DNA of 8,442 nucleotides from a virus (lineage: Duplodnaviria > Heunggongvirae > Uroviricota > Caudoviricetes), in the IMG/VR virus record IMGVR_UViG_2531839666_000024. One strand, 5' to 3'. Position numbers and translations under genes: made by a program. Position 1 is the stretch's first letter. Each line of letters begins with the position of its first letter. The notes beneath the pieces were generated by a model. That model had not been told where the DNA came from. It did no database searches and saw nothing but the letters and a program-made list of their open reading frames with translations. Below, piece after piece: positions 1 through 8,442 of the stretch.

Positions 1-112
1 AACTGAAGTTGCCCTGAAAATGAAATTTTTTTGCACAACCGCAGAACTTTTCCGCAGGGCATCAGTCTTAATTAGTGCCACTGCTTTTCTTTGATGTCCC
101 CATTTTGTGGAG

Positions 113-155
113 CCCATCAACCCCGCCATTTCGGTTCAAGGTTGATGGGTTTTTT
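113..155 (+). terminator. Rho-independent terminator (10-bp perfect stem, 17-nt loop, T6 tract)
   Basis: cccatcaacc (113-122) is the exact reverse complement of ggttgatggg (140-149), followed directly by tttttt (150-155). The T tract is on the plus strand only, so it terminates rightward transcription entering from the left flank. Confidence 0.7.
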
Positions 156-235
156 GTTGCCTGAAATTTAAGCTGTTTAAAATCATGATGTTAGAAACAC
201 TGTTTTTTAACGATGGCGACAAAATGGCGGCAGCG

Positions 236-454
236 TCAAAGAGAGAGCGCCACCTGTCCTGATTTCATTGGATGCGGCTGAACCGGATTTGACTCTTTTG
301 GCGTTGCAATCGAACGAACAAAAGTTTCATGGGTAACAAAAGTATGGCTGCAGTTAATGTTCTGGCACTGGTTGTAACGCTCTTTGGTCAATGAAGATAC
401 CTGAAAACTGCTGCGAGTATGGGCGGCACTTCCACACAGTGGGCAAATCATCAT
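236..454 (-). CDS. ogr: Ogr/Delta-family zinc-finger late-gene transcription activator
   Basis: Small ORF immediately downstream of gene D, as in P2. It has a Cys-x2-Cys...Cys-x4-Cys motif (CPLCG...CQNINC) and the KERY(N/H)QCQN signature typical of Ogr. Start is ambiguous: ATG at 454 has the better SD spacing (GGGGAGAA upstream), ATG at 451 aligns with the P2 Ogr N-terminus, and the ORF track start at 487 is probably an over-extension. Confidence 0.85.
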   Translation of the reverse strand: MMICPLCGSAAHTRSSFQVSSLTKERYNQCQNINCSHTFVTHETFVRSIATPKESNPVQPHPMKSGQVALSL

Positions 455-491
455 TTTTCGAGTTCTCCCCATTTTTGCTAAATTCACAATA

Positions 492-518
492 ATGATACCG
501 CATTATTCCATTTTGCAA
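492..518 (-). promoter_or_regulatory. Candidate sigma70 promoter for ogr (-35 TTGCAA, 15-bp spacer, -10 TATCAT on minus strand)
   Basis: Read on the minus strand, the D-ogr spacer contains TTGCAA (plus 513-518) and TATCAT (plus 492-497), about 35-40 nt upstream of the ogr start. Hexamer match only. Confidence 0.25.
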
Positions 519-544
519 ACTTAAAAGTTCTCCATTGCGAAGAA

Positions 545-1645
545 TCATTCCATTTCGAAATCATCAATCCTCACTTCAAGCTCCAGACTGGTTGTAAAAC
601 CGTTATCGGGGCTGACGGTATGCGTCAGAGTCGTAATGGTCCATTCCGCATCATCTATCGGCTGTTTAAAGCCACTGACTTTCACTGGCATTTCCGTGTA
701 GAGATCTGCCCGACCTTCTGCCAGTTGTAGCGAGAATGACGCAACGCCGCGTTGCAGGCGTTCCCACTGCATTTTCGCCGCCCGTTCGGCGTTGCTCCGG
801 TTGGCATAGGTGCGATTAAGTACCAGCACGTTTTCATCTGTACCCACCAGGTAATCGCCCTGCTTCGCTTCCGGCTCTTTCTTCTGCTTCTTAGTCCTGC
901 GCTTACGCTTCACCGTGGTGCTTTCATTCTTCGCGGGTTCGCGGGTATGCAACCAGCTGGCAATTACGCCCGTGTAGGCTCCGCGATCTGCCAGGGTAAA
1001 GCGGTGACTGTCGCCGTCCTTACGTGTGATAGTGATAACCGGTAGTGGTTTACCGCTGGCGCTTTTACCCTGTCCCTGCCGGATGAATAACAGATTGCCA
1101 TTTTTCACCGACGCAATAGCACCGTACTGGCGCGCCAGCCGCATCAGAAAACTGCCGTCACTCTCATTGGTCTGGTCTATATGTTCCACGGGTTTATCTG
1201 ACAGGTCTTTACCCAATGCCATCTTCAGTTTGTGCCGCACAGCTATTTCCTTCACCACTTCCCCAACGGTGGTCTTGTGCCACGACTTTTCACGGCGGGT
1301 ATTCAGCGTTTCACGAAAATCAGCACTTCGCGCCCGGATAGTCAGGCGGTCCGGTGCGCCAGTGTGTTCAATCTCGTCCACCGTGAATGCCCCTTTCGGG
1401 AAAAGCGGCTGCCCCTTCCAGCCCAGCGCCAGCGTAATAACCGCACCACGGCGCGGCAGCACGATTTTTCCGTCGGCGTCGTCCAGCTCCAGATCAAGCT
1501 GGTCCGCTTCAAAGCCCCGATTGTCCGTCAGCGTCAAACTCATCAGGCGGTTATCCAGCACAGTGGTGATATCCCTGCCCTCAATACTGATGCTGAATGC
1601 GGGAGTTTTGTTGCCTTTGTTAAGCAGTTCAGAGCTGAAATTCAT
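545..1645 (-). CDS. D: Tail protein gpD (late control gene D family)
   Basis: 366-aa ORF at the P2 gpD position (after U, before ogr). Its start overlaps the U stop in an ATGA junction. Size and N-terminal sequence are typical of the gpD family. Confidence 0.9.
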   Translation of the reverse strand: MNFSSELLNKGNKTPAFSISIEGRDITTVLDNRLMSLTLTDNRGFEADQLDLELDDADGKIVLPRRGAVITLALGWKGQPLFPKGAFTVDEIEHTGAPDRLTIRARSADFRETLNTRREKSWHKTTVGEVVKEIAVRHKLKMALGKDLSDKPVEHIDQTNESDGSFLMRLARQYGAIASVKNGNLLFIRQGQGKSASGKPLPVITITRKDGDSHRFTLADRGAYTGVIASWLHTREPAKNESTTVKRKRRTKKQKKEPEAKQGDYLVGTDENVLVLNRTYANRSNAERAAKMQWERLQRGVASFSLQLAEGRADLYTEMPVKVSGFKQPIDDAEWTITTLTHTVSPDNGFTTSLELEVRIDDFEME

Positions 1646-2127
1646 GACAGCAGCCCTCCCACCGTTTTACTGATATCGCTTAAGGCAGACGTTGCTGTGT
1701 CCTGCAGATTATTCAGTTGCGCACTGAGATCACCGAATATATCGGACAGGGATTCATCCACCCGTTTGAGCGACAGGGTGAACTCAATCCGGCGCGGCAT
1801 ACCGTCGCGGAAAAACTCCGTTTTAGTCTGATTCAGTCCCTCAATCACATACATGCCATAAATCGTGCCACTGCCTTCAATCAGGGGCCATGCTTTCCCC
1901 TGTTCTGCCATCTGCTCCAGTGCCAGCAACGACAGCCTGCCACCTGTTATCTCCGGCATAAGAACACCGGAAAGCGTCAGCATGTCGTTGTCCGGTCCCA
2001 GAAACTGCGTGGACGGACGTCGGTTTACCCGGCTGTTTGCCGCATGTCGCCAGCTGCGTTGATACTGCAGCTCCTGATACGGTACGGTGCGCAGCATAAA
2101 CACGTACAATCCCAGCACCATCATCAT
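1642..2127 (-). CDS. U: Tail protein gpU
   Basis: 161-aa ORF between T and D with ATGA overlaps on both sides. The MMMVLGL...VPYQELQ N-terminus is characteristic of P2 gpU. Confidence 0.85.
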   Translation of the reverse strand: MMMVLGLYVFMLRTVPYQELQYQRSWRHAANSRVNRRPSTQFLGPDNDMLTLSGVLMPEITGGRLSLLALEQMAEQGKAWPLIEGSGTIYGMYVIEGLNQTKTEFFRDGMPRRIEFTLSLKRVDESLSDIFGDLSAQLNNLQDTATSALSDISKTVGGLLS

Positions 2128-5100
2128 GCGTCGTATCCCCCCTGATCGCTGTAGTTACTCCTGGCTTTTGCCTTCAGCCTGCGTTCACGTTCATCAAGCT
2201 GGCGGGCCACCTCCCGCGCAATATCCTGCGCACTTTGTCCTGGCTGTGTCTGGATGATGATCTGCGTCGGTGCTTCAATCCGGTAAATGGGCGGCACAGT
2301 AGCTGCACGACTCACCATCGCTTCACCGCCTTTTGCGGGAAGCGCCAAAAGATGCAACGGTGGAAGCTCTGCTGGCGCGGCAGCAACACCCATCATTCCG
2401 GCGACAACGGCAGCCAGTGCAGCTGTATTTCTCCGGCTGGTCACGTTTGCCGGGCCGTTAACAATTTCCGGCCCGTTTTCACCGACGATGCCAAACTGCC
2501 CGCGCGGGATATAGCCGCCGCTGTCATACATCCCCGCAAAGCCATATCCCCATGACGGAAAATCACCCGATGGCATCATCACTTTACCGTCTGCATTCAC
2601 CGTCGCAGGTTGCTGACGCGTCACGCTTTCCGGCAGTTTCGCCTTTGCAGCCTCTTTACTGACAATGCCGAGTTTCTCCAGCAACCAGGAAACGCCGGAT
2701 TTCAGGGAGTCCAGCGGATGCATGACCATATTCAGCCCTTCTGCCAGTGCCTCCCCGAATCGTCGCCCCATTGCCGCTGCGCTCTGCAGTTCGGCAGAGG
2801 TCGACTTAACGGGCGTCAGCAGATCAGTAAACCAGCCCCACAGCGCCTGCACTTTGTCGCCAATCCACTGGAACACGGGCTTAAGCGGTTCGAACGCTGC
2901 ACTGATGGGACCTGCCGCCGCTTTGAATCCTTCCACCACGCCACCGAGAAATGCGGTGATGGGTTGCCAGTATTTCCAGACAACCAGCGCCACGCCCGCC
3001 AGTGCAGTAACCACAAGACCTATCGGACTGAGCAGAGCACCTAACAGACCAGATATGGCATACAGGGCAACGCGCAGCATCGCCAGTGGACCAGATGCCA
3101 GTACTCGCAGCACCGTGCCTGCGGCGGCCAGTCCACCGCGCAGTGCCGCCAGAGGATTCATAAACATCACAGCAACAGCACGTAAACCGGATAATCCAGA
3201 CCGCAAAAGTGCAACCGGCGCACCTGCTACAGTTTTCAGGACATTTCCCGTCAGTGATGCCGTGCGGCGCAAAGACGACAACGGCGCAGTAAGTAAACCT
3301 GCGGCGTTGCCCGATGAAGCAAGCCCGCGTCGCAGCAGTGCCAGTGGCGCGCCAGCCAGCCAGGACAACGCGCTGCTGGTTCGAGTTACTGCTGCCGTAA
3401 CGGAAGATAACGTTTTGATACCCAACACAGAGAATCCCAGACGGATCACTGCCAGCGGCCCCAGCACTGCAGCCAGCGCCACCGCTAAGGTGCCGAGGCC
3501 GACAGTAACCGCAGCCACAACAGCCGATGCTTTCATCAGTGTGCCTGTCAGTTCCGGGTTAGCTTCCACCCAGCGACGCAACGCCCCCGTGACGCTTTTC
3601 ACCGTGTACAGAATATCCATCAGCGGCTGGCGCAGCGTTTCGCCCAGGCTGCTGAAGGTGTTCTGCGCTCCGGTTTTGACCAGCAACCACTGCGCAGAAA
3701 GTGAATCCTTGTTAATGTCGGATTCTTTCTGCATGGAGCCGAGCGCATCATTGCCCGCTGTCAGTTTTAACTGACGCTGCAGTTCCGGCAGGTTGTTTGC
3801 CAGTTTCGCCGCGTCATCGCCAAACTCTTTACCAAACAACATAGTCATGGCAGACAGGCGCTTGTCCTGCGGCAGCGCGTTTACCTTCTCCAGCACGCGC
3901 TGGATGGTTCCCATCGCATCCTTCGTCATCTGCTTTTCAATCACTTCAGGATTGAGTTTCAGCAGATTCATCCCTTCAAAGAAACTCTTGCTTTGCATGG
4001 TGGCAATGGACAATTCACGCACCATCGCGTTTGCTGCACTGGCTGCAACCTCTGGCGCAGCGCCCAGTGTCAGGAAGGTGGAGCCCAGCGCCGCCGCTTT
4101 ACGATAATCCAGACGGTCAGCCACACCGCCCAGACGTTGCATCACATCAATGATGTCTGCCCCTTTCGACATGGCGTTATCATCCAGATAGTTCAGCGCA
4201 TCACCGAGCTGTTCAATATTGCGGGTGGGGATTTTGTAGAGCTGGGCGATTTTCCCCAGACTTTCTGACAGTTCATCCGCTGGCAGCTCAAAGGCTGTTG
4301 CCGCCTTTGCTGCCGTACTGGCGAAGGCCAGCAGGTCACGTTTCTGATCTTCCCAGCTGTCGTCAGGGTTTGCGACGTTCATGCGCGCACCACCTTCAAC
4401 CAGTGCAGCGAAGTCCACCGCACCGTTTTCCATCGGCAACTGTTCGCTGGCAGCCTTGATGGCATCCTGCATTTCATAAAAACGTGCAGTGCGGTTGCCA
4501 TTATCGTCACGCAGACCATTGACCTGCTTTGCCACACCTTTCATGGCATCTTCCATGCTGGTATAGCTTTTTACTGCCGCCATCACTGGCGCACCCATTG
4601 CCAGCCCTGCAGCCGTGGTGGTGGCTCCGGCACCTGCAATACGATCACGCACCTCCAGCGAACGGGCATAACTGGCACGCGCTGCATTCATCCTGCGCTG
4701 AGCTTCCCCCAGTCGCTTCAGCCGCGCCTCCTGTTTCGAAAGTTCCTGGTTATAACGTGATGTTTCACGGGCTAAACGGGCAGTTGCTCCCGCATCGTCT
4801 TTCGCAGAAATTCCCGCCCGGTACAGTTCAGCACGCACAAGCGCCGTCTGCTGCTGCAGCTTTTTCTGGCGTTCTTCCAGGCGCTGAACAGCCAGCCGTT
4901 GACGGCCCAGAGCAACAACCTGACGTTGCGAAGGCGGCCCCATCGCTCCCAGTTCCTGACTGAGCAAATTTGCACGCTGGCGGGCATAGTTCAGCCTGTC
5001 GCCTAATTTCTGATTTTCTGCCTGCAGCTTTCGGAAGCTGTCCAGACTGCTCCCGGCCTGATCAAGCTGCTTTATTGCATCGCGGGATTTTTTGACAGCA

Positions 5101-5201
5101 GCAGCCAGTTCTCTTGAACTGGCCTGTGCAGATCGAAATGGGCGGGTGAGCTTGTCAACCGCATTAAGAATGACCTGCAGACGCAGGTTGTTATCACTCA
5201 T
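2124..5201 (-). CDS. T: Tail tape measure protein gpT (1025 aa)
   Basis: Long ORF downstream of E/E' in the FETUD arrangement. It has an N-terminal coiled-coil-like region rich in Q/R/L/A, a central hydrophobic block and Ala/Leu-rich tandem repeats. Its ATG at 5199-5201 overlaps the E' stop codon. Confidence 0.9.
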   Translation of the reverse strand: MSDNNLRLQVILNAVDKLTRPFRSAQASSRELAAAVKKSRDAIKQLDQAGSSLDSFRKLQAENQKLGDRLNYARQRANLLSQELGAMGPPSQRQVVALGRQRLAVQRLEERQKKLQQQTALVRAELYRAGISAKDDAGATARLARETSRYNQELSKQEARLKRLGEAQRRMNAARASYARSLEVRDRIAGAGATTTAAGLAMGAPVMAAVKSYTSMEDAMKGVAKQVNGLRDDNGNRTARFYEMQDAIKAASEQLPMENGAVDFAALVEGGARMNVANPDDSWEDQKRDLLAFASTAAKAATAFELPADELSESLGKIAQLYKIPTRNIEQLGDALNYLDDNAMSKGADIIDVMQRLGGVADRLDYRKAAALGSTFLTLGAAPEVAASAANAMVRELSIATMQSKSFFEGMNLLKLNPEVIEKQMTKDAMGTIQRVLEKVNALPQDKRLSAMTMLFGKEFGDDAAKLANNLPELQRQLKLTAGNDALGSMQKESDINKDSLSAQWLLVKTGAQNTFSSLGETLRQPLMDILYTVKSVTGALRRWVEANPELTGTLMKASAVVAAVTVGLGTLAVALAAVLGPLAVIRLGFSVLGIKTLSSVTAAVTRTSSALSWLAGAPLALLRRGLASSGNAAGLLTAPLSSLRRTASLTGNVLKTVAGAPVALLRSGLSGLRAVAVMFMNPLAALRGGLAAAGTVLRVLASGPLAMLRVALYAISGLLGALLSPIGLVVTALAGVALVVWKYWQPITAFLGGVVEGFKAAAGPISAAFEPLKPVFQWIGDKVQALWGWFTDLLTPVKSTSAELQSAAAMGRRFGEALAEGLNMVMHPLDSLKSGVSWLLEKLGIVSKEAAKAKLPESVTRQQPATVNADGKVMMPSGDFPSWGYGFAGMYDSGGYIPRGQFGIVGENGPEIVNGPANVTSRRNTAALAAVVAGMMGVAAAPAELPPLHLLALPAKGGEAMVSRAATVPPIYRIEAPTQIIIQTQPGQSAQDIAREVARQLDERERRLKAKARSNYSDQGGYDA
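3027..3356 (-). repeat. Five tandem degenerate ~22-aa (~66-bp) coding repeats inside the tape measure (motif xPLxxLRxxLxxxG)
   Basis: Consecutive protein segments AGAPLALLRRGLASSGNAAGLL / TAPLSSLRRTASLTGNVLKTV / AGAPVALLRSGLSGLRAVAVMFM / NPLAALRGGLAAAGTVLRVLAS / GPLAMLRVALYAISGLLGALLS. Coordinates were mapped from the codons by hand and are approximate. Confidence 0.5.
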
Positions 5202-5630
5202 CGTTGGCCCCGCTTCTCTGAATCGCTTTATACCGCCATTCCAGCACTTCGGTCAGCGGCATAACGTCAGTAACGGATGGCGGCCAGTGAAAAATGGTGG
5301 CGATATCTGCCACCAGATCGTCAACCGTCAGGCTGTCGGTAAACCGGCAAGCACCGACTTCTTCAACAAAAAAGTGACAACCTCAACCGACATGGCAGTG
5401 AGATCTGCCGGGTCCATCTCTGCAATTTCCTGTGCAGTCAGTGCCGGACTGGAGATGCGGGGGATCACGGTCATCATCGCGTTTACATCCATATCCATAA
5501 TGGCCTGCAGGCGTGTACCGCGCAGCGCACCGGACTGCGGTTTACGCAGCACAATTTCGGTGATTTCTGTTTTACCGCGCTTGATGGGGGTATCCAGTTG
5601 AATGGTCTTTTCAGTCTGCTTATCGCTCAT
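5194..5630 (-). CDS. E+E': Tail assembly chaperone gpE+E' (-1 frameshift fusion, ~145 aa)
   Basis: After a -1 slip at T_TTT_TTG, the -1 frame stays open for 57 codons (VEEVGACRFTDSLTVDDLVADIATIFHWPPSVTDVMPLTEVLEWRYKAIQRSGANDE). It ends at a TGA (5194-5196) that overlaps the T start (minus-strand AACGATGAGTGA). Translated by hand from the sequence. Confidence 0.75.
5328..5630 (-). CDS. E: Tail assembly chaperone gpE (zero-frame product, 100 aa)
   Basis: ORF between FII and T at the P2 gene E position. The slippery heptamer lies 13 codons before its stop. Confidence 0.85.
   Translation of the reverse strand: MSDKQTEKTIQLDTPIKRGKTEITEIVLRKPQSGALRGTRLQAIMDMDVNAMMTVIPRISSPALTAQEIAEMDPADLTAMSVEVVTFLLKKSVLAGLPTA
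5367..5373 (-). other. Programmed -1 ribosomal frameshift slippery heptamer T_TTT_TTG
   Basis: Minus-strand GTC ACT TTT TTG TTG AAG; zero-frame codons ACT-TTT-TTG. This is the same heptamer and relative position as the P2 E/E' recoding site, analogous to lambda G/GT. Confidence 0.8.
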
Positions 5631-5655
5631 TTTGCTGTCCTGTCAATTGGGTTCT

Positions 5656-5673
5656 GGCGCGGTATCCCGCGCC
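5656..5673 (-). other. GC-rich hairpin in the FII-E intergenic spacer (7-bp stem GGCGCGG/CCGCGCC, 4-nt loop), no U tract
   Basis: Perfect inverted repeat ggcgcgg (5656-5662) and ccgcgcc (5667-5673), 12 nt downstream of the FII stop and about 25 nt upstream of the E start. Confidence 0.35.
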
Positions 5674-5684
5674 GTTCAGATATA

Positions 5685-6200
5685 TCAGAGGCCGAGGGCG
5701 TTGCGGTGCGCTTCCATCAGGTCCACACCGTCCACAATTTCCACCATGTTGATAAGGTCCACTTCATAGAGCACCTCACCATTGATGGTCAGCTTCGCGT
5801 AGCTGTTGGTACTGGTCACTTTGGTGGTGTTGCTTTCGCCCGTCTTCCACTCGCCGGAATCCACTTCTTTGTGACGTCCACGCACGACAAGCTCCACGGC
5901 CTGCACTTCCCCGGTATCGTCACGCTGAATAGAGCCGGTAAAGCGCAGCTGGATGCCATCCACCGTGGCTTTACCCATCTGTTTAAACAGCAGCAATTCA
6001 GTACCACCAATGGAAAATTCTGTGTCCAGCGCACTGTCATCAAGCCCCAGGTCCACATCCACCGCACCCGGCATTCCGCCGCCGCGATACTTCTCATATT
6101 TGCGGGTAAATTTCGGCAGCGTCAGCGACTCAACGATCCCCTGCCAGTTGTTCCCGTCGTTAAACAGGTTCAGGTGTTTTAATTTGCGTGGTAAAGCCAT
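5685..6200 (-). CDS. FII: Major tail tube protein gpFII
   Basis: 171-aa ORF 9 bp downstream of the sheath gene. The MALPRKLK(H/Y)LNLFNDG N-terminus and the size match P2 FII. Confidence 0.9.
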   Translation of the reverse strand: MALPRKLKHLNLFNDGNNWQGIVESLTLPKFTRKYEKYRGGGMPGAVDVDLGLDDSALDTEFSIGGTELLLFKQMGKATVDGIQLRFTGSIQRDDTGEVQAVELVVRGRHKEVDSGEWKTGESNTTKVTSTNSYAKLTINGEVLYEVDLINMVEIVDGVDLMEAHRNALGL

Positions 6201-6209
6201 GTTGTCCCC

Positions 6210-7382
6210 TTACGCGCTGACCTGGCTGGCGAAATTCACCAGGTACTGATCGGTGATGCGCTGACGCAGCATCAGGTTTTCAAGTGGCGGCACTGGCGTG
6301 TAGTCGTAGTCGATGGTGAGTTTTCCGGCTTTCAGCGTGTCTTTGTCGTTCACCGACTCATCCAGCCAGCAATCACCACCAATGAGATAGCCCTGACTGA
6401 CCAGGCTGCGCATTTTGGCGCGGATACCTTCGATAATGTCGCGGGCCAGCGACGGGTTAAGCGGTTTATCCACCGCCCACATGTGTGCTTCTGCCATCGT
6501 GTCCATCAGCACCTGCGCCGTGCGGGTGTAGTTTTCGAAGGCAAAGAGCGGGTCATCACTCAGGCAGCGGGAACCCCAGAAGCGGAAACCGTCTTTACGC
6601 ACAAGCGTGGTGACGTCGTTCTGGTTCAGCAGACCTGCATCGGTTGCCGGGTCCTGCAGATCCCAGAACACATCTGCAGAAATTCCGGTGACACCGTTCA
6701 CGCCCACGTTGGACAGGCTTTTGTGCCATCCGGTCTGCTCGTCAATTTTGGCGCGCAGACCAAGCGCACGGGCGGTGGCATATGCCGTTGCTTCGGCATT
6801 CAGCACCGTGTCCCAGCCAGTAAAGTCAGGCCAGATCAGCATCCCTTCGCGCTGGCTGAAGTTTTCGCGGTAAGTGATCGCCTCCTGCACTGTCTTGCAG
6901 CCATACGCTGACAGGTAAGCAAATCCACGCAGGCTTTGCGCCACGCTTAGCAACTCAGTAGCTACCGCCTTGGTGTCGTGGCCTGGCACGCCGAGAATGC
7001 GCGGTTTAACGCCGAGCTGTGACTGGGCAGATAACAGGGCTTTCATACCTGTTTTTTTACCTTCAGCAGTCACTGCGCCGATGATATTGGTCGTGGTTTC
7101 GTCTTCCGTTTCACCCTGCGGCACACGCACAACAATGGTCACGGGTTTTGCCTGGTCAGCGATGGCATCCAGCGAACGGGCCAGAGTACCTGACTCACCC
7201 GCTTTACCGCTGGCAGTCAGCACATCAGTGATCAGCACGGGTTTATTAAGAGGAAACATTTTTGCATCGGCATCATCGCCCGTGCAGACCATACCCACGA
7301 TGGCGGTGCTCACCGTGGTAATAGATCGGGTGCCTTCGTTGACTTCAACAACGCGCACCCCGTGGTGGTAATCCTGAGCCAT
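6210..7382 (-). CDS. FI: Contractile tail sheath protein gpFI
   Basis: 390-aa ORF that is first in the operon, with a strong SD (AGGAGG, 9-nt spacer). The ...DYHHGV...INEGTR...[10 protein letters not shown]... N-terminus is typical of the P2 sheath. Confidence 0.92.
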
Positions 7383-7457
7383 AGTGGCGAACCTCCTGAT
7401 TGGATTAGGCTTCGCCCTATGTTGAAGTGATTGTGCCTGACAAACAGCTAAGCGCAG

Positions 7458-7477
7458 TTGTGTCGTTATTCACACAA
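7458..7477 (-). promoter_or_regulatory. Ogr-type late promoter activator box (TGT-N12-ACA dyad) upstream of FI, putative PF
   Basis: ttgtgtcgttattcacacaa carries TGT (7459-7461), a 12-nt spacer and ACA (7474-7476) with extended 6-bp arms TTGTGT/ACACAA. It is centred about 85 nt upstream of the FI ATG. This is the P2/186 late-promoter element bound by Ogr/Delta. Confidence 0.6.
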
Positions 7478-7524
7478 AATGACGGTATTTGTCTACTTGC
7501 AGGGATAATCAAAATAATGCTGAT

Positions 7525-8091
7525 TCAGGGGGATTCATTGCTCTTATTTGCCGGAAATTTTCTATAAATGGTAGAAACGCCTACATCAAAAATCAGTGCA
7601 ATACGCTGTCTTGATTCTCCGGCCTCGAGTAAACGCCCAATCTGTGCCCACTGTTCGGTGGTCAACTTAGGACGGCGTCCACCTACTCTGCCTTTGGCAC
7701 GAGCTGCAGCCAGCCCTGCCATGGTACGTTCAACTATCAGTTCGCGTTCCATTTCAGCCAGGGCCCCCATGACATGAAAAAAGAAACGGCCCATTGGGGT
7801 GCTGGTATCAATACTGTCAGTCAGGCTTCGGAAATTCACGCCACGCTGACGCAACTCTTCTATCAGCGTAACAAGATGCCGCATACTGCGCCCCAACCTG
7901 TCCAGCTTCCAGACAACCAGAGTGTCTCCTGCCGATAGTGTCCTGAGCAGTTTTTTAAGCCCCGGTCTGTCGGACTTAGTGCCACTGATTTTATCCTCAA
8001 AAATCCGCTCACATCCCGCGCAGTTCAGTGCATTACGTTGCAAATCGGTGTTCTGGTCATTTGTTGACACGCGTACATAGCCAATAAGCAT
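7525..8091 (-). CDS. Serine DNA invertase, Hin/Gin/Cin/Pin family
   Basis: The N-terminus MLIGYVRVSTNDQ contains the catalytic Ser. RPGL...GD.L.V.KLDRLGR and the C-terminal HTH (GVSTIYR) are family hallmarks. The start was chosen at the internal ATG (8089-8091) with SD AGGGGA and a 6-nt spacer; the ORF track extension to 8136 lacks an RBS and runs into the recombination site. Confidence 0.9.
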   Translation of the reverse strand: MLIGYVRVSTNDQNTDLQRNALNCAGCERIFEDKISGTKSDRPGLKKLLRTLSAGDTLVVWKLDRLGRSMRHLVTLIEELRQRGVNFRSLTDSIDTSTPMGRFFFHVMGALAEMERELIVERTMAGLAAARAKGRVGGRRPKLTTEQWAQIGRLLEAGESRQRIALIFDVGVSTIYRKFPANKSNESP

Positions 8092-8102
8092 GATCAATCC
8101 CC

Positions 8103-8128
8103 TGAATAAAAACCGTGGATGATGCCAG
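8103..8128. other. Candidate 26-bp invertase crossover site (gix/hix/pix-like) at the edge of an invertible segment
   Basis: tgaataaaaacc-gt-ggatgatgccag. The outer half matches the remembered hix/gix half-site consensus TTATCAAAAACC at 9 of 12 positions and the central CC-NN-GG is present, but the inner half is weak. It lies between the invertase start and the opening of the fiber reading frame. Confidence 0.4.
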
Positions 8129-8442
8129 TTAGCCATTATCTCTGCATTTTCATAAACGTTGGTTTGGGAGAAGGTTCGGCATTACCCGTTGGTGTGCCTG
8201 TTCCGTGGCCTTCCGCCACTCCGCCAACAGGCTGGCTGAAATGCAACGGTGCGGCTTTTTCTGCTGAAGAATACCCGGAACTGGCAAAGGCTTACCCGAC
8301 CAATAAATTGCCTGATTTACGCGGTGAATTTATTCGTGGCTGGGATGACGGTCGCGGGATTGATACTGGTCGCGCTTTGCTTAATAGGCAGCCACACACA
8401 ATTTTGGACCATGCACACTATATGGAATTATGGACAGGGGAC
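8110..8442 (+). CDS. Tail fiber C-terminal variable cassette, partial; probably the promoterless alternative copy in the silent orientation
   Basis: The frame opens immediately after a TAA at 8107-8109 and stays open to the window end. It encodes ...PVGVPVPWPSATPPTGWLKCNGAAFSAEEYPELAKAYPTNKLPDLRGEFIRGWDDGRGIDTGRALL..., a phage tail-collar/fiber-tip type motif. There is no convincing RBS before the in-frame ATGs at 8119/8122, and it is opposite in strand to the tail operon. Confidence 0.65.

Follow-up and report, generated by a model that had tools for sequence, protein, structure and literature searches.

Gene Organization of the Locus

The stretch of DNA analyzed in this study (hereafter, the window) is 8442 nucleotides in length and represents the right arm of a P2/186-like prophage, which is inserted beside ybjL. 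The prophage that hosts the locus carries retron Ec67. The E. coli genome JNEC-KY202 differs from the window by two mismatches over the 8442 bp, and a SNP at position 8386 is private to the window among the records compared. The four genomes closest to the window show zero or one SNP over positions 1 to 8173, while relatives with an intact prophage arrangement show six or seven. A 36-kb record labeled as a plasmid (NZ_CP019257.1) was considered as a candidate for an excised phage, but it contains chromosomal genes from ybjL to rlmC and frameshifted phage genes, and it was left out. The features of the window are summarized in Table 1.

Table 1. Features of the window, with their coordinates and the basis of each assignment
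Feature	Coordinates	Strand	Basis
Right-arm prophage genes ogr, D, U, T, E/E′, FII, and FI		-	
Serine DNA invertase gene of the Pin/Gin/Cin family, 188 aa	7525..8091	-	Pfam domains, homologues, PGAP coordinates
Predicted Fis-dependent recombinational enhancer	8007..8069	.	Two 15-bp Fis-core motifs (proximal, 8055-8069; distal, 8007-8021)
Invertase leader and presumed promoter region	8092..8146	-	Alignment with the gixR-to-gin-start stretch of Mu and with the e14 equivalent
In-frame ORF extension outside the segment, from ATGATG (8119-8124), MMPVSHYLCIFINV	8119..8160	+	PGAP starts; ATG conserved in e14 and Mu
Invertase-proximal 26-bp crossover site, TTTTCATAAACG TT GGTTTGGGAGAA	8147..8172	.	Identity with e14, gixR alignment, partner in relatives
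First 94 codons of Sv′, the silent alternative fiber C-terminal cassette, tail-collar type	8161..8442	+	Collar domain, identity with e14 StfE, fusion ORF

To the right of the sheath gene, a complete ORF starting at the ATG at 8091 encodes a protein that begins with MLIGYVRVS. It has a Resolvase domain (PF00239, E 6.8e-53) and an HTH_7 domain (PF02796, E 1.5e-15), and it can be aligned over its full length with the Mu Gin structures 3UJ3 and 4M6F (E 1e-93, about 78% identity). In the alignment with Gin residues 1-184, the catalytic Ser9 is found in MLIGYVRVSTNDQ, and the wild-type Met114 is present. The protein is 87% identical to PinE of e14 and 78.6% identical to Cin of P1, while the gamma-delta and Tn3 resolvases match it far less closely (E 1e-31 to 1e-34). 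Thus, the Gin/Hin/Pin-family serine invertase recognized in the initial annotation, which was made from the nucleotide sequence alone, is confirmed. A longer ORF reaching 8136 appeared in the ORF listing but was dropped, since the alignments with Gin, Cin, and PinE all begin at the ATG at 8091 and PGAP agrees, giving identical coordinates in a near-identical genome. A ribosome-binding site, AGGGGA, lies ahead of this ATG at 8098-8103, and a simple promoter scan found no promoter for the invertase gene. As in Mu, the gene is transcribed away from the invertible segment and has a crossover site just upstream of its start.

On the plus strand, the reading frame from 8161 reads GLGEGSALPVGVPVPWPSATPPTGWLKCNG, and the cassette opens with GLGEGSALPVG inside the crossover site. 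The tail-collar motif noted there earlier proved to be a Phage Tail Collar domain (PF07484, E 1.3e-15) at about nucleotides 8191-8334, and the frame runs off the right end of the window. In relatives, Sv′ extends 225 nucleotides further, to about window coordinate 8667. The first 70 or so residues after GLGE are identical to those of StfE of e14.

It had been expected from knowledge of the family that a Fis-dependent enhancer lies early in the invertase gene. A pattern made from the Fis-core consensus, KNNYRNNWNNYRNNM-N33-KNNYRNNWNNYRNNM, matches the window once, at 8007-8069, although the motif is degenerate and 0.58 matches per window are expected by chance. The centers of the two motifs are 48 bp apart, and the pair spans +23 to +85 of the invertase coding sequence. 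The pair falls within the interval 8002-8073, which is homologous to the annotated cin enhancer of P1 (+19 to +90), and Mu gin, P1 cin, and e14 pinE do not vary at the key motif positions. This conservation could simply be that of the N-terminal protein sequence; no part of the protein is better conserved than the one encoded here. The motif pair fits the expectation as a prediction rather than as a proof, and the Fis dependence of the switch would follow from what is known of the family.

The Crossover Site and Its Partner

The initial annotation had placed the crossover site at 8103-8128, about 12 bp from the invertase gene. It was found that this proposal lies 44 bp too far to the left and that the site occupies 8147-8172, 55 bp upstream of the invertase start. 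The 26-bp sequence at this position is identical at 26 of 26 residues to the e14 site beside pinE, and its core is matched by the published repeat of the e14 P segment, TTGGTTTGGGAGAAGG (PMC12529663). It also aligns column for column with gixR of Mu, the center of which is the annotated G-segment boundary, and it fits the imperfectly dyad-symmetric 26-bp type TTCTCNNAAACC NN GGTTTNNGAGAA. The 26-mers were also scored with a half-site matrix. It is based on 15 half-sites, taken from Mu, e14, P1, and the EC958 prophages, and two of them (from e14) are identical to this prophage's own. With this matrix, the sequence at 8147-8172 is the top-scoring 26-mer, and the site and its partner reach 27 bits, against at most 11 bits for the best non-site 26-mers in 39.9 kb.

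The comparison of genomes points to the same position. Homology to many phage records ends at window position 8173, and FHI_NMBU_11 is 100% identical to the window from 1 to 8173 and has the segment flipped from 8174 on. In the intact relatives, an inverted partner, TTCTCACATACC TT GGTTTGGGAGAA, is found 1.98 kb to the right. These sequence comparisons indicate that 8147-8172 is the true crossover site and the left boundary of the invertible segment, where strand exchange would take place at the central dinucleotide, 8159-8160.

Could the site nevertheless be 8103-8128? Within this stretch, AAAACCGTGG looks like one half of a gix-type site, but a second half-site is lacking. The check that had been proposed, a search for an inverted copy to the right, gave no copy on either strand with up to nine mismatches in 8.6-45 kb of three near-identical relatives, and no repeat partner was found in the window either. 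The stretch overlaps the ribosome-binding site and leader of the invertase gene, and it aligns with plain non-site leader sequence upstream of gin in Mu and of pinE in e14. Moreover, genomes with a flipped segment are collinear with the window on both sides of 8103-8128 and break at 8173/8174, which refutes this placement; its probability is practically nil.

Two Orientations of the Invertible Segment

The organization of the whole segment can be seen in relatives. In fS25a, the order is invertase, site, Sv′, tfa′, tfa, H (500 aa), I, J, W, and V; the partner site TTCTCACATACC TT GGTTTGGGAGAA lies within H, and an IS66 element interrupts Sv′. At 1.98 kb to the right of 8160, an intact H would read TTCTCCCAAACC AA followed by GGTATGTGAGAA. 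The segment consists of two cassettes with two Caudo_TAP chaperones between them. The initial annotation had predicted a partner site and chaperones to the right of the window, and in the intact relatives both are there. An expressed fiber gene had also been predicted just to the right. This is so in the intact relatives, but the four closest genomes have the constant part of H as a pseudogene at a distance of 21 kb.

In-silico fusions of the two cassettes to the constant N-terminus of H give proteins of 500 and 518 aa, and both lengths occur naturally. PRO_A-1443, which differs from the window by six SNPs over positions 1-8173, has the segment flipped and a natural H of 518 aa made of the constant part and the window's cassette. 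The natural 518-aa H with the window's tip is found in the record NZ_CM136167.1.

Both orientations were found among near-identical genomes. In FHI_NMBU_11, the 1955-bp segment is reverse-complemented with no mismatch to that of JNEC-KY202 and the window. The records NZ_CP149553.1 and NZ_CP149565.1 are equal in length and differ in the orientation at identical coordinates. In a count over complete E. coli genomes, 200 have the collar cassette facing the invertase gene and 36 have the other cassette there. These orientations are a comparison between genomes; the window itself holds one of the two sites. In EC958, the prophages Phi1, Phi2, and Phi4 have homologous fiber segments of 2-3 kb between 26-bp sites, and PacBio reads showed these segments in both orientations (PMC4134206).

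From these results, I consider it about 90% probable that this region represents one end, the one with the invertase gene, of a site-specific inversion switch of the Pin/Gin type in a P2/186-like prophage. The earlier idea of a switch of the Mu G-segment type with a silent alternative C-terminal cassette stands, on the grounds of homology, genome comparison, and the natural 518-aa fusion. By analogy with the family, invertase dimers would bind the two inverted 26-bp sites, one at 8147-8172 and the other about 1.98 kb to the right inside the tail-fiber gene H. With Fis on the predicted enhancer early in the invertase gene, both sites would be cut at the central TT/AA, and the cut ends would rotate and be religated, so that the segment is flipped. 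The two fiber C-terminal cassettes would be promoterless, with one chaperone each. Since both begin with the site-encoded GLGE, either one can continue the reading frame of the constant N-terminal part of H, which is 350 aa long. The choice of the fusion would give the virions one of two receptor specificities; this effect on the host range, like the chemistry of the strand exchange, is taken from what is known of the family. In the orientation of the window, the collar-type cassette faces the invertase gene and would be silent.

It may be asked whether the switch is a fossil, that is, the remains of an inversion system that has ceased to work in this prophage family. The fiber gene is broken in the nearest relatives, and one relative has the IS66 element inside a cassette. 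On the other hand, the invertase is full-length with the catalytic Ser9 and all domains, the two orientations occur with no mismatch between genomes that are 0-4 SNPs apart over 30 kb, and the orientation differs between the two equal-length records. A fossil is very improbable, and the preferred reading remains a switch that inverts.

A Reading Frame Starting Outside the Segment

According to the initial annotation, the plus-strand frame has no plausible translation start. This is only partly right, as an in-frame ATGATG at 8119-8124, outside the segment, is used as a start by PGAP, while a promoter and a good Shine-Dalgarno sequence are lacking. The frame from 8119 continues across the site and into the cassette that happens to face it, and the proteins annotated by PGAP from the ATGATG are 182 aa or 163 aa, depending on the orientation. 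A simple scan found no sigma-70-like plus-strand promoter ahead of the ATGATG or the cassette, and the Shine-Dalgarno sequence is poor, a weak GTGG abutting the ATG. Is the plus-strand ORF a complete gene starting at the ATG at 8119 or 8122? If so, inversion would swap the C-terminus of a short secreted or surface fiber-tip protein, instead of or besides changing the host range of the virion.

There is no stop codon between the ATGATG and the site, and PGAP has a protein for each orientation. In e14, the ATG and the open frame are both retained, and Mu retains the ATG. The equivalent of the ATGATG in e14 is the start of stfE or "stfE2", and an e14 chimera translated from the equivalent codon blocks T2 adsorption when produced (PMC12529663). 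In addition, the segment still flips in the four closest genomes even though it is uncoupled from the fiber. A short protein from this frame might block the adsorption of other phages, as is claimed for StfE2 of e14.

Against this, neither a sigma-70-like promoter nor more than the weak GTGG precedes the ATG, and the leader of 14 residues is a hydrophobic filler from the promoter and leader region of the invertase gene. Since this region encodes it, the leader may be conserved for the sake of the invertase. Both cassettes act as ordinary fiber C-termini in the intact relatives, the second cassette is unrelated to the StfP tip of e14 that makes StfE2, and the e14 evidence comes largely from overproduction from a plasmid. 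A transfer of the anti-phage function of StfE2 to the present switch was considered and rejected, because the second cassette has no homology to it. An independent gene is unlikely; the ATGATG is probably not a real start but a by-product of the leader sequence of the invertase gene, and the preferred reading remains that of a switch between the C-termini of H.

A 21.1-kb Inversion in the Closest Relatives

It was revealed that the four genomes closest to the window, JNEC-KY202, JNEC-KY174, FHI_NMBU_11, and CFIAFB20190167, have an inversion of 21.1 kb. To the right of the segment, these genomes have apl′-cII-fil...A, retron Ec67, and the head, lysis, and baseplate genes in reverse, and then a truncated H. 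This H encodes 352 aa, is annotated as "missing C-terminus", and abuts cI and int; the constant part of the fiber gene is 21 kb away and on the other strand.

The junctions were compared with the sequences of an intact relative. Junction B of the inverted lineage, TTCTCCCAAACC AA CGTTATAGCGAA, is a hybrid site whose inner half and core are intact, and junction C, between the constant part of H and cI, reads TTCTCACATACC TT CGATTGTGACAT. The intact relative has a quasi-site, ATGTCACAATCG AA CGTTATAGCGAA, within codons 13-21 of apl. This apl quasi-site also reads ATGTCACAATCGAACGTTATAGCGAA. A reciprocal exchange between the H-proximal site and the apl quasi-site accounts exactly for junctions B and C, in which no base of the two parents is missing or added. 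Since the parental sequences differ right beside the central AA on both sides, the exchange was confined to that dinucleotide, which, as far as sequence can tell, is the signature of a serine invertase. Among the 5706 26-mers of the 39.9 kb that have an AA/TT core, the apl quasi-site ranks third by score, behind only the two true sites, and it ranks tenth of 39,885 when any core is allowed. Its core is inverted relative to that of the H-proximal site, as an inversion requires. It appears from the junctions that the same invertase flipped 21 kb of its own prophage via the apl quasi-site, breaking the fiber gene.

A rearrangement by another mechanism, such as microhomology-mediated or RecA-dependent recombination, or a misassembly, is improbable. 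The event itself was not seen directly, and the parental sequences do share a 2-bp identity and nothing more. However, homologous recombination needs far more than 2 bp, and the exchange, which is reciprocal and conservative, maps precisely to the central dinucleotide of a genuine invertase site. Its partner is the top-ranked quasi-site, with a matching core and in the orientation that gives an inversion, and both junctions are common to four assemblies from three countries. Cin is known to use quasi-sites of this kind; Iida and Hiestand-Nauer reportedly showed in 1987 that these share the central dinucleotide. An invertase-mediated inversion is thus preferred.

The complete junction C is present in only 4 of 5426 genomes. 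Junction B is complete with the segment in the orientation of JNEC-KY202 in two of the four; the other two have the same hybrid site with the segment flipped. Because the hybrid site occurs with both segment orientations and the four genomes are a handful of SNPs apart over 30 kb, the simplest history is a single ancestral inversion, after which the small segment flipped through the hybrid site. The genome from which the window was taken probably shares the 21-kb inversion, since its closest relatives, at zero or one SNP, are all inverted, while the intact relatives are six or seven SNPs away. No paper on the large inversion of this prophage was found in the literature.

What would the inversion do to the prophage? 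It splits both H and apl. A pR-like promoter, TTGACA-17-TAAAGT, remains on the cI side of the breakpoint, and the early lytic operon would therefore have lost its promoter. With this loss, the truncated Apl, and the headless fiber, the prophage should not produce phage. The 2-kb segment still flips in the inverted lineage but no longer dresses a fiber.

Comparison with Known Inversion Systems

In its mechanism and its defining features, the system belongs to the Pin/Gin/Cin type of inversion systems; the closest known one is the e14 P segment with PinE, and the organization resembles that of the Mu G segment. Besides the similarity of the invertases and the identity of the proximal 26-bp sites described above, e14 has the same geometry, in which a cassette and a site are followed by an invertase gene transcribed away from the segment, and a tfaE-type chaperone is present here too. 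The collar cassettes share the identical first part but are mosaic in the distal part, with 60% identity overall. In contrast to the P2/186-like prophage studied here, e14 is a 15-kb remnant, and the second cassette here is unrelated to StfP.

The arrangement Sc [Sv U U′ Sv′] gin of the Mu G segment is shared; gixR lies about 67 bp ahead of the start of gin, Gin is about 78% identical, and the sites can be aligned. The Mu enhancer was reportedly located inside the 5′ end of gin by Kahmann et al. in 1985. The central dinucleotide is TT/AA here and TC/GA in the gix sites of Mu, the segment is 1.98 kb here and 3 kb in Mu, and the phage backbones differ. The P1 C segment has a 78.6% identical invertase, Cin, and a cin enhancer (+19 to +90) homologous to window positions 8002-8073; however, cixL lies at the 3′ end of cin, which is transcribed toward the segment, while the site here is upstream of the invertase gene.

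The sites of the EC958 prophage Phi2, ...ATAAACGTT GGTTTGGGGGAA and ...ATTACCTT GGTTTAGGAGAA, closely resemble the sites found here, while the cassettes and prophage alleles differ and no large quasi-site inversion was reported there (PMC4134206). Hin of Salmonella belongs to the same invertase subfamily and works on 26-bp hix sites with a two-site Fis enhancer in the recombinase gene (PMC3798978). Unlike the switch described here, which flips coding cassettes, Hin lies inside its own segment and flips a promoter.

Significance of the Switch and of the Large Inversion

The fiber switch is another copy of a textbook mechanism known from e14, Mu, P1, and many E. coli prophages and matters little as such. 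Its value is one for annotation, since fiber-tip fragments beside invertase genes are cassettes rather than genes, and assemblies may differ by orientation alone.

A bolder idea is that the invertase acts as a switch on the scale of the prophage. The 21-kb inversion, reversible in principle, would silence lytic development and excision and truncate the fiber, and the 2-kb segment would be co-opted for short fiber-tip proteins translated from the ATG at 8119 or 8122, for example for receptor masking of the kind claimed for StfE2 of e14. This is a long shot. If it were true, the off-target activity of an invertase would be a route to prophage domestication or to on/off control.

The quasi-site inversion illustrates a behavior documented for Cin in the 1980s and is not new in kind. 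What is worth keeping is a natural, base-precise case in which an invertase and a quasi-site with a matching dinucleotide appear to have inverted most of the invertase's own prophage. It shows how invertases can ground a retron Ec67 prophage and reshape genomes.

Inversions at the fibre crossover site

A 21.1-kb inversion covering most of the prophage is shared by the four genomes that resemble the window most closely. It has the fibre crossover site at one end and, at the other, a quasi-site within apl. The exchange falls precisely at the central AA/TT, and both apl and the tail-fibre gene H are split by it.

The chromosome records NZ_CP149553.1 and NZ_CP149565.1 are of equal length (5,198,112 bp), and different cassettes face the invertase at the same coordinates, about 2,007,026-2,008,068. 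They appear to represent near-isogenic isolates differing by a flip of the segment. An ATG lies beyond the invertible segment, in frame with either cassette when that cassette faces the invertase. This ATG is common to the window's prophage, e14 and Mu, and annotation pipelines call a gene start there.

Variation in the collar cassette

It was found that the silent collar cassette of the window has a private SNP at position 8386 (A, versus T in all relatives examined), which changes Trp to Arg (LLNWQPH to LLNRQPH). Since the SNP is private, no examined record is the source of the window. In strain fS25a, ISCro1, an IS66-family element, interrupts the silent collar cassette of a prophage that is otherwise intact. 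The collar cassette also has a mosaic make-up: up to and including the collar domain it matches e14 StfE exactly, whereas the distal part is strongly divergent, and the similarity returns over the last ~15 residues.

Retron, a possible cargo gene and related records

The prophage has a gene for a retron Ec67-family reverse transcriptase/endonuclease, flanked by the replication and portal genes. The prophage with this retron is located at ybjL, ~19 min on the K-12 map, and probably corresponds to the classic element known to carry Ec67. A gene for a KAP-family NTPase is flanked by cI/ydcA and int in fS25a. The prophages of KY202 and FHI lack this gene, and its position has the look of a variable slot for cargo or defence genes.

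Coordinates of features in the window and in related loci
Feature	Sequence	Position
Inversion junctions	L002 (NZ_AP045178.1)	2794-2819; 23961-23986
	L003 (further locus)	13043-13068; 34210-34235
ATG outside the segment	Window	8119-8124
	L007 (e14 locus)	about 4150-4156
	L006 (Mu locus)	4554
Mosaic collar cassette	L002	827-1333
	L007	3620-4156
ISCro1, IS66-family	L004 (NZ_CM176579.1)	1287-3902
Retron Ec67-family reverse transcriptase/endonuclease	L002	9709-11649
	L005 (fS25a prophage)	9263-11203
KAP-family NTPase	L005	19836-21167

The 36-kb NZ_CP019257.1 ("plasmid p13TMH22-1") consists of a part of the window's prophage and the chromosomal genes from ybjL to rlmC. It contains many frameshifts, and this "plasmid" probably arose as an artefact of assembly.

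Records labelled Klebsiella phage (Kp48xx) match window 7400-8173, a stretch that takes in the invertase and the site, at 99.5% identity, and past the crossover site they are divergent from the window or flipped. This match suggests that the invertase/site module, or the phage, crosses genera.
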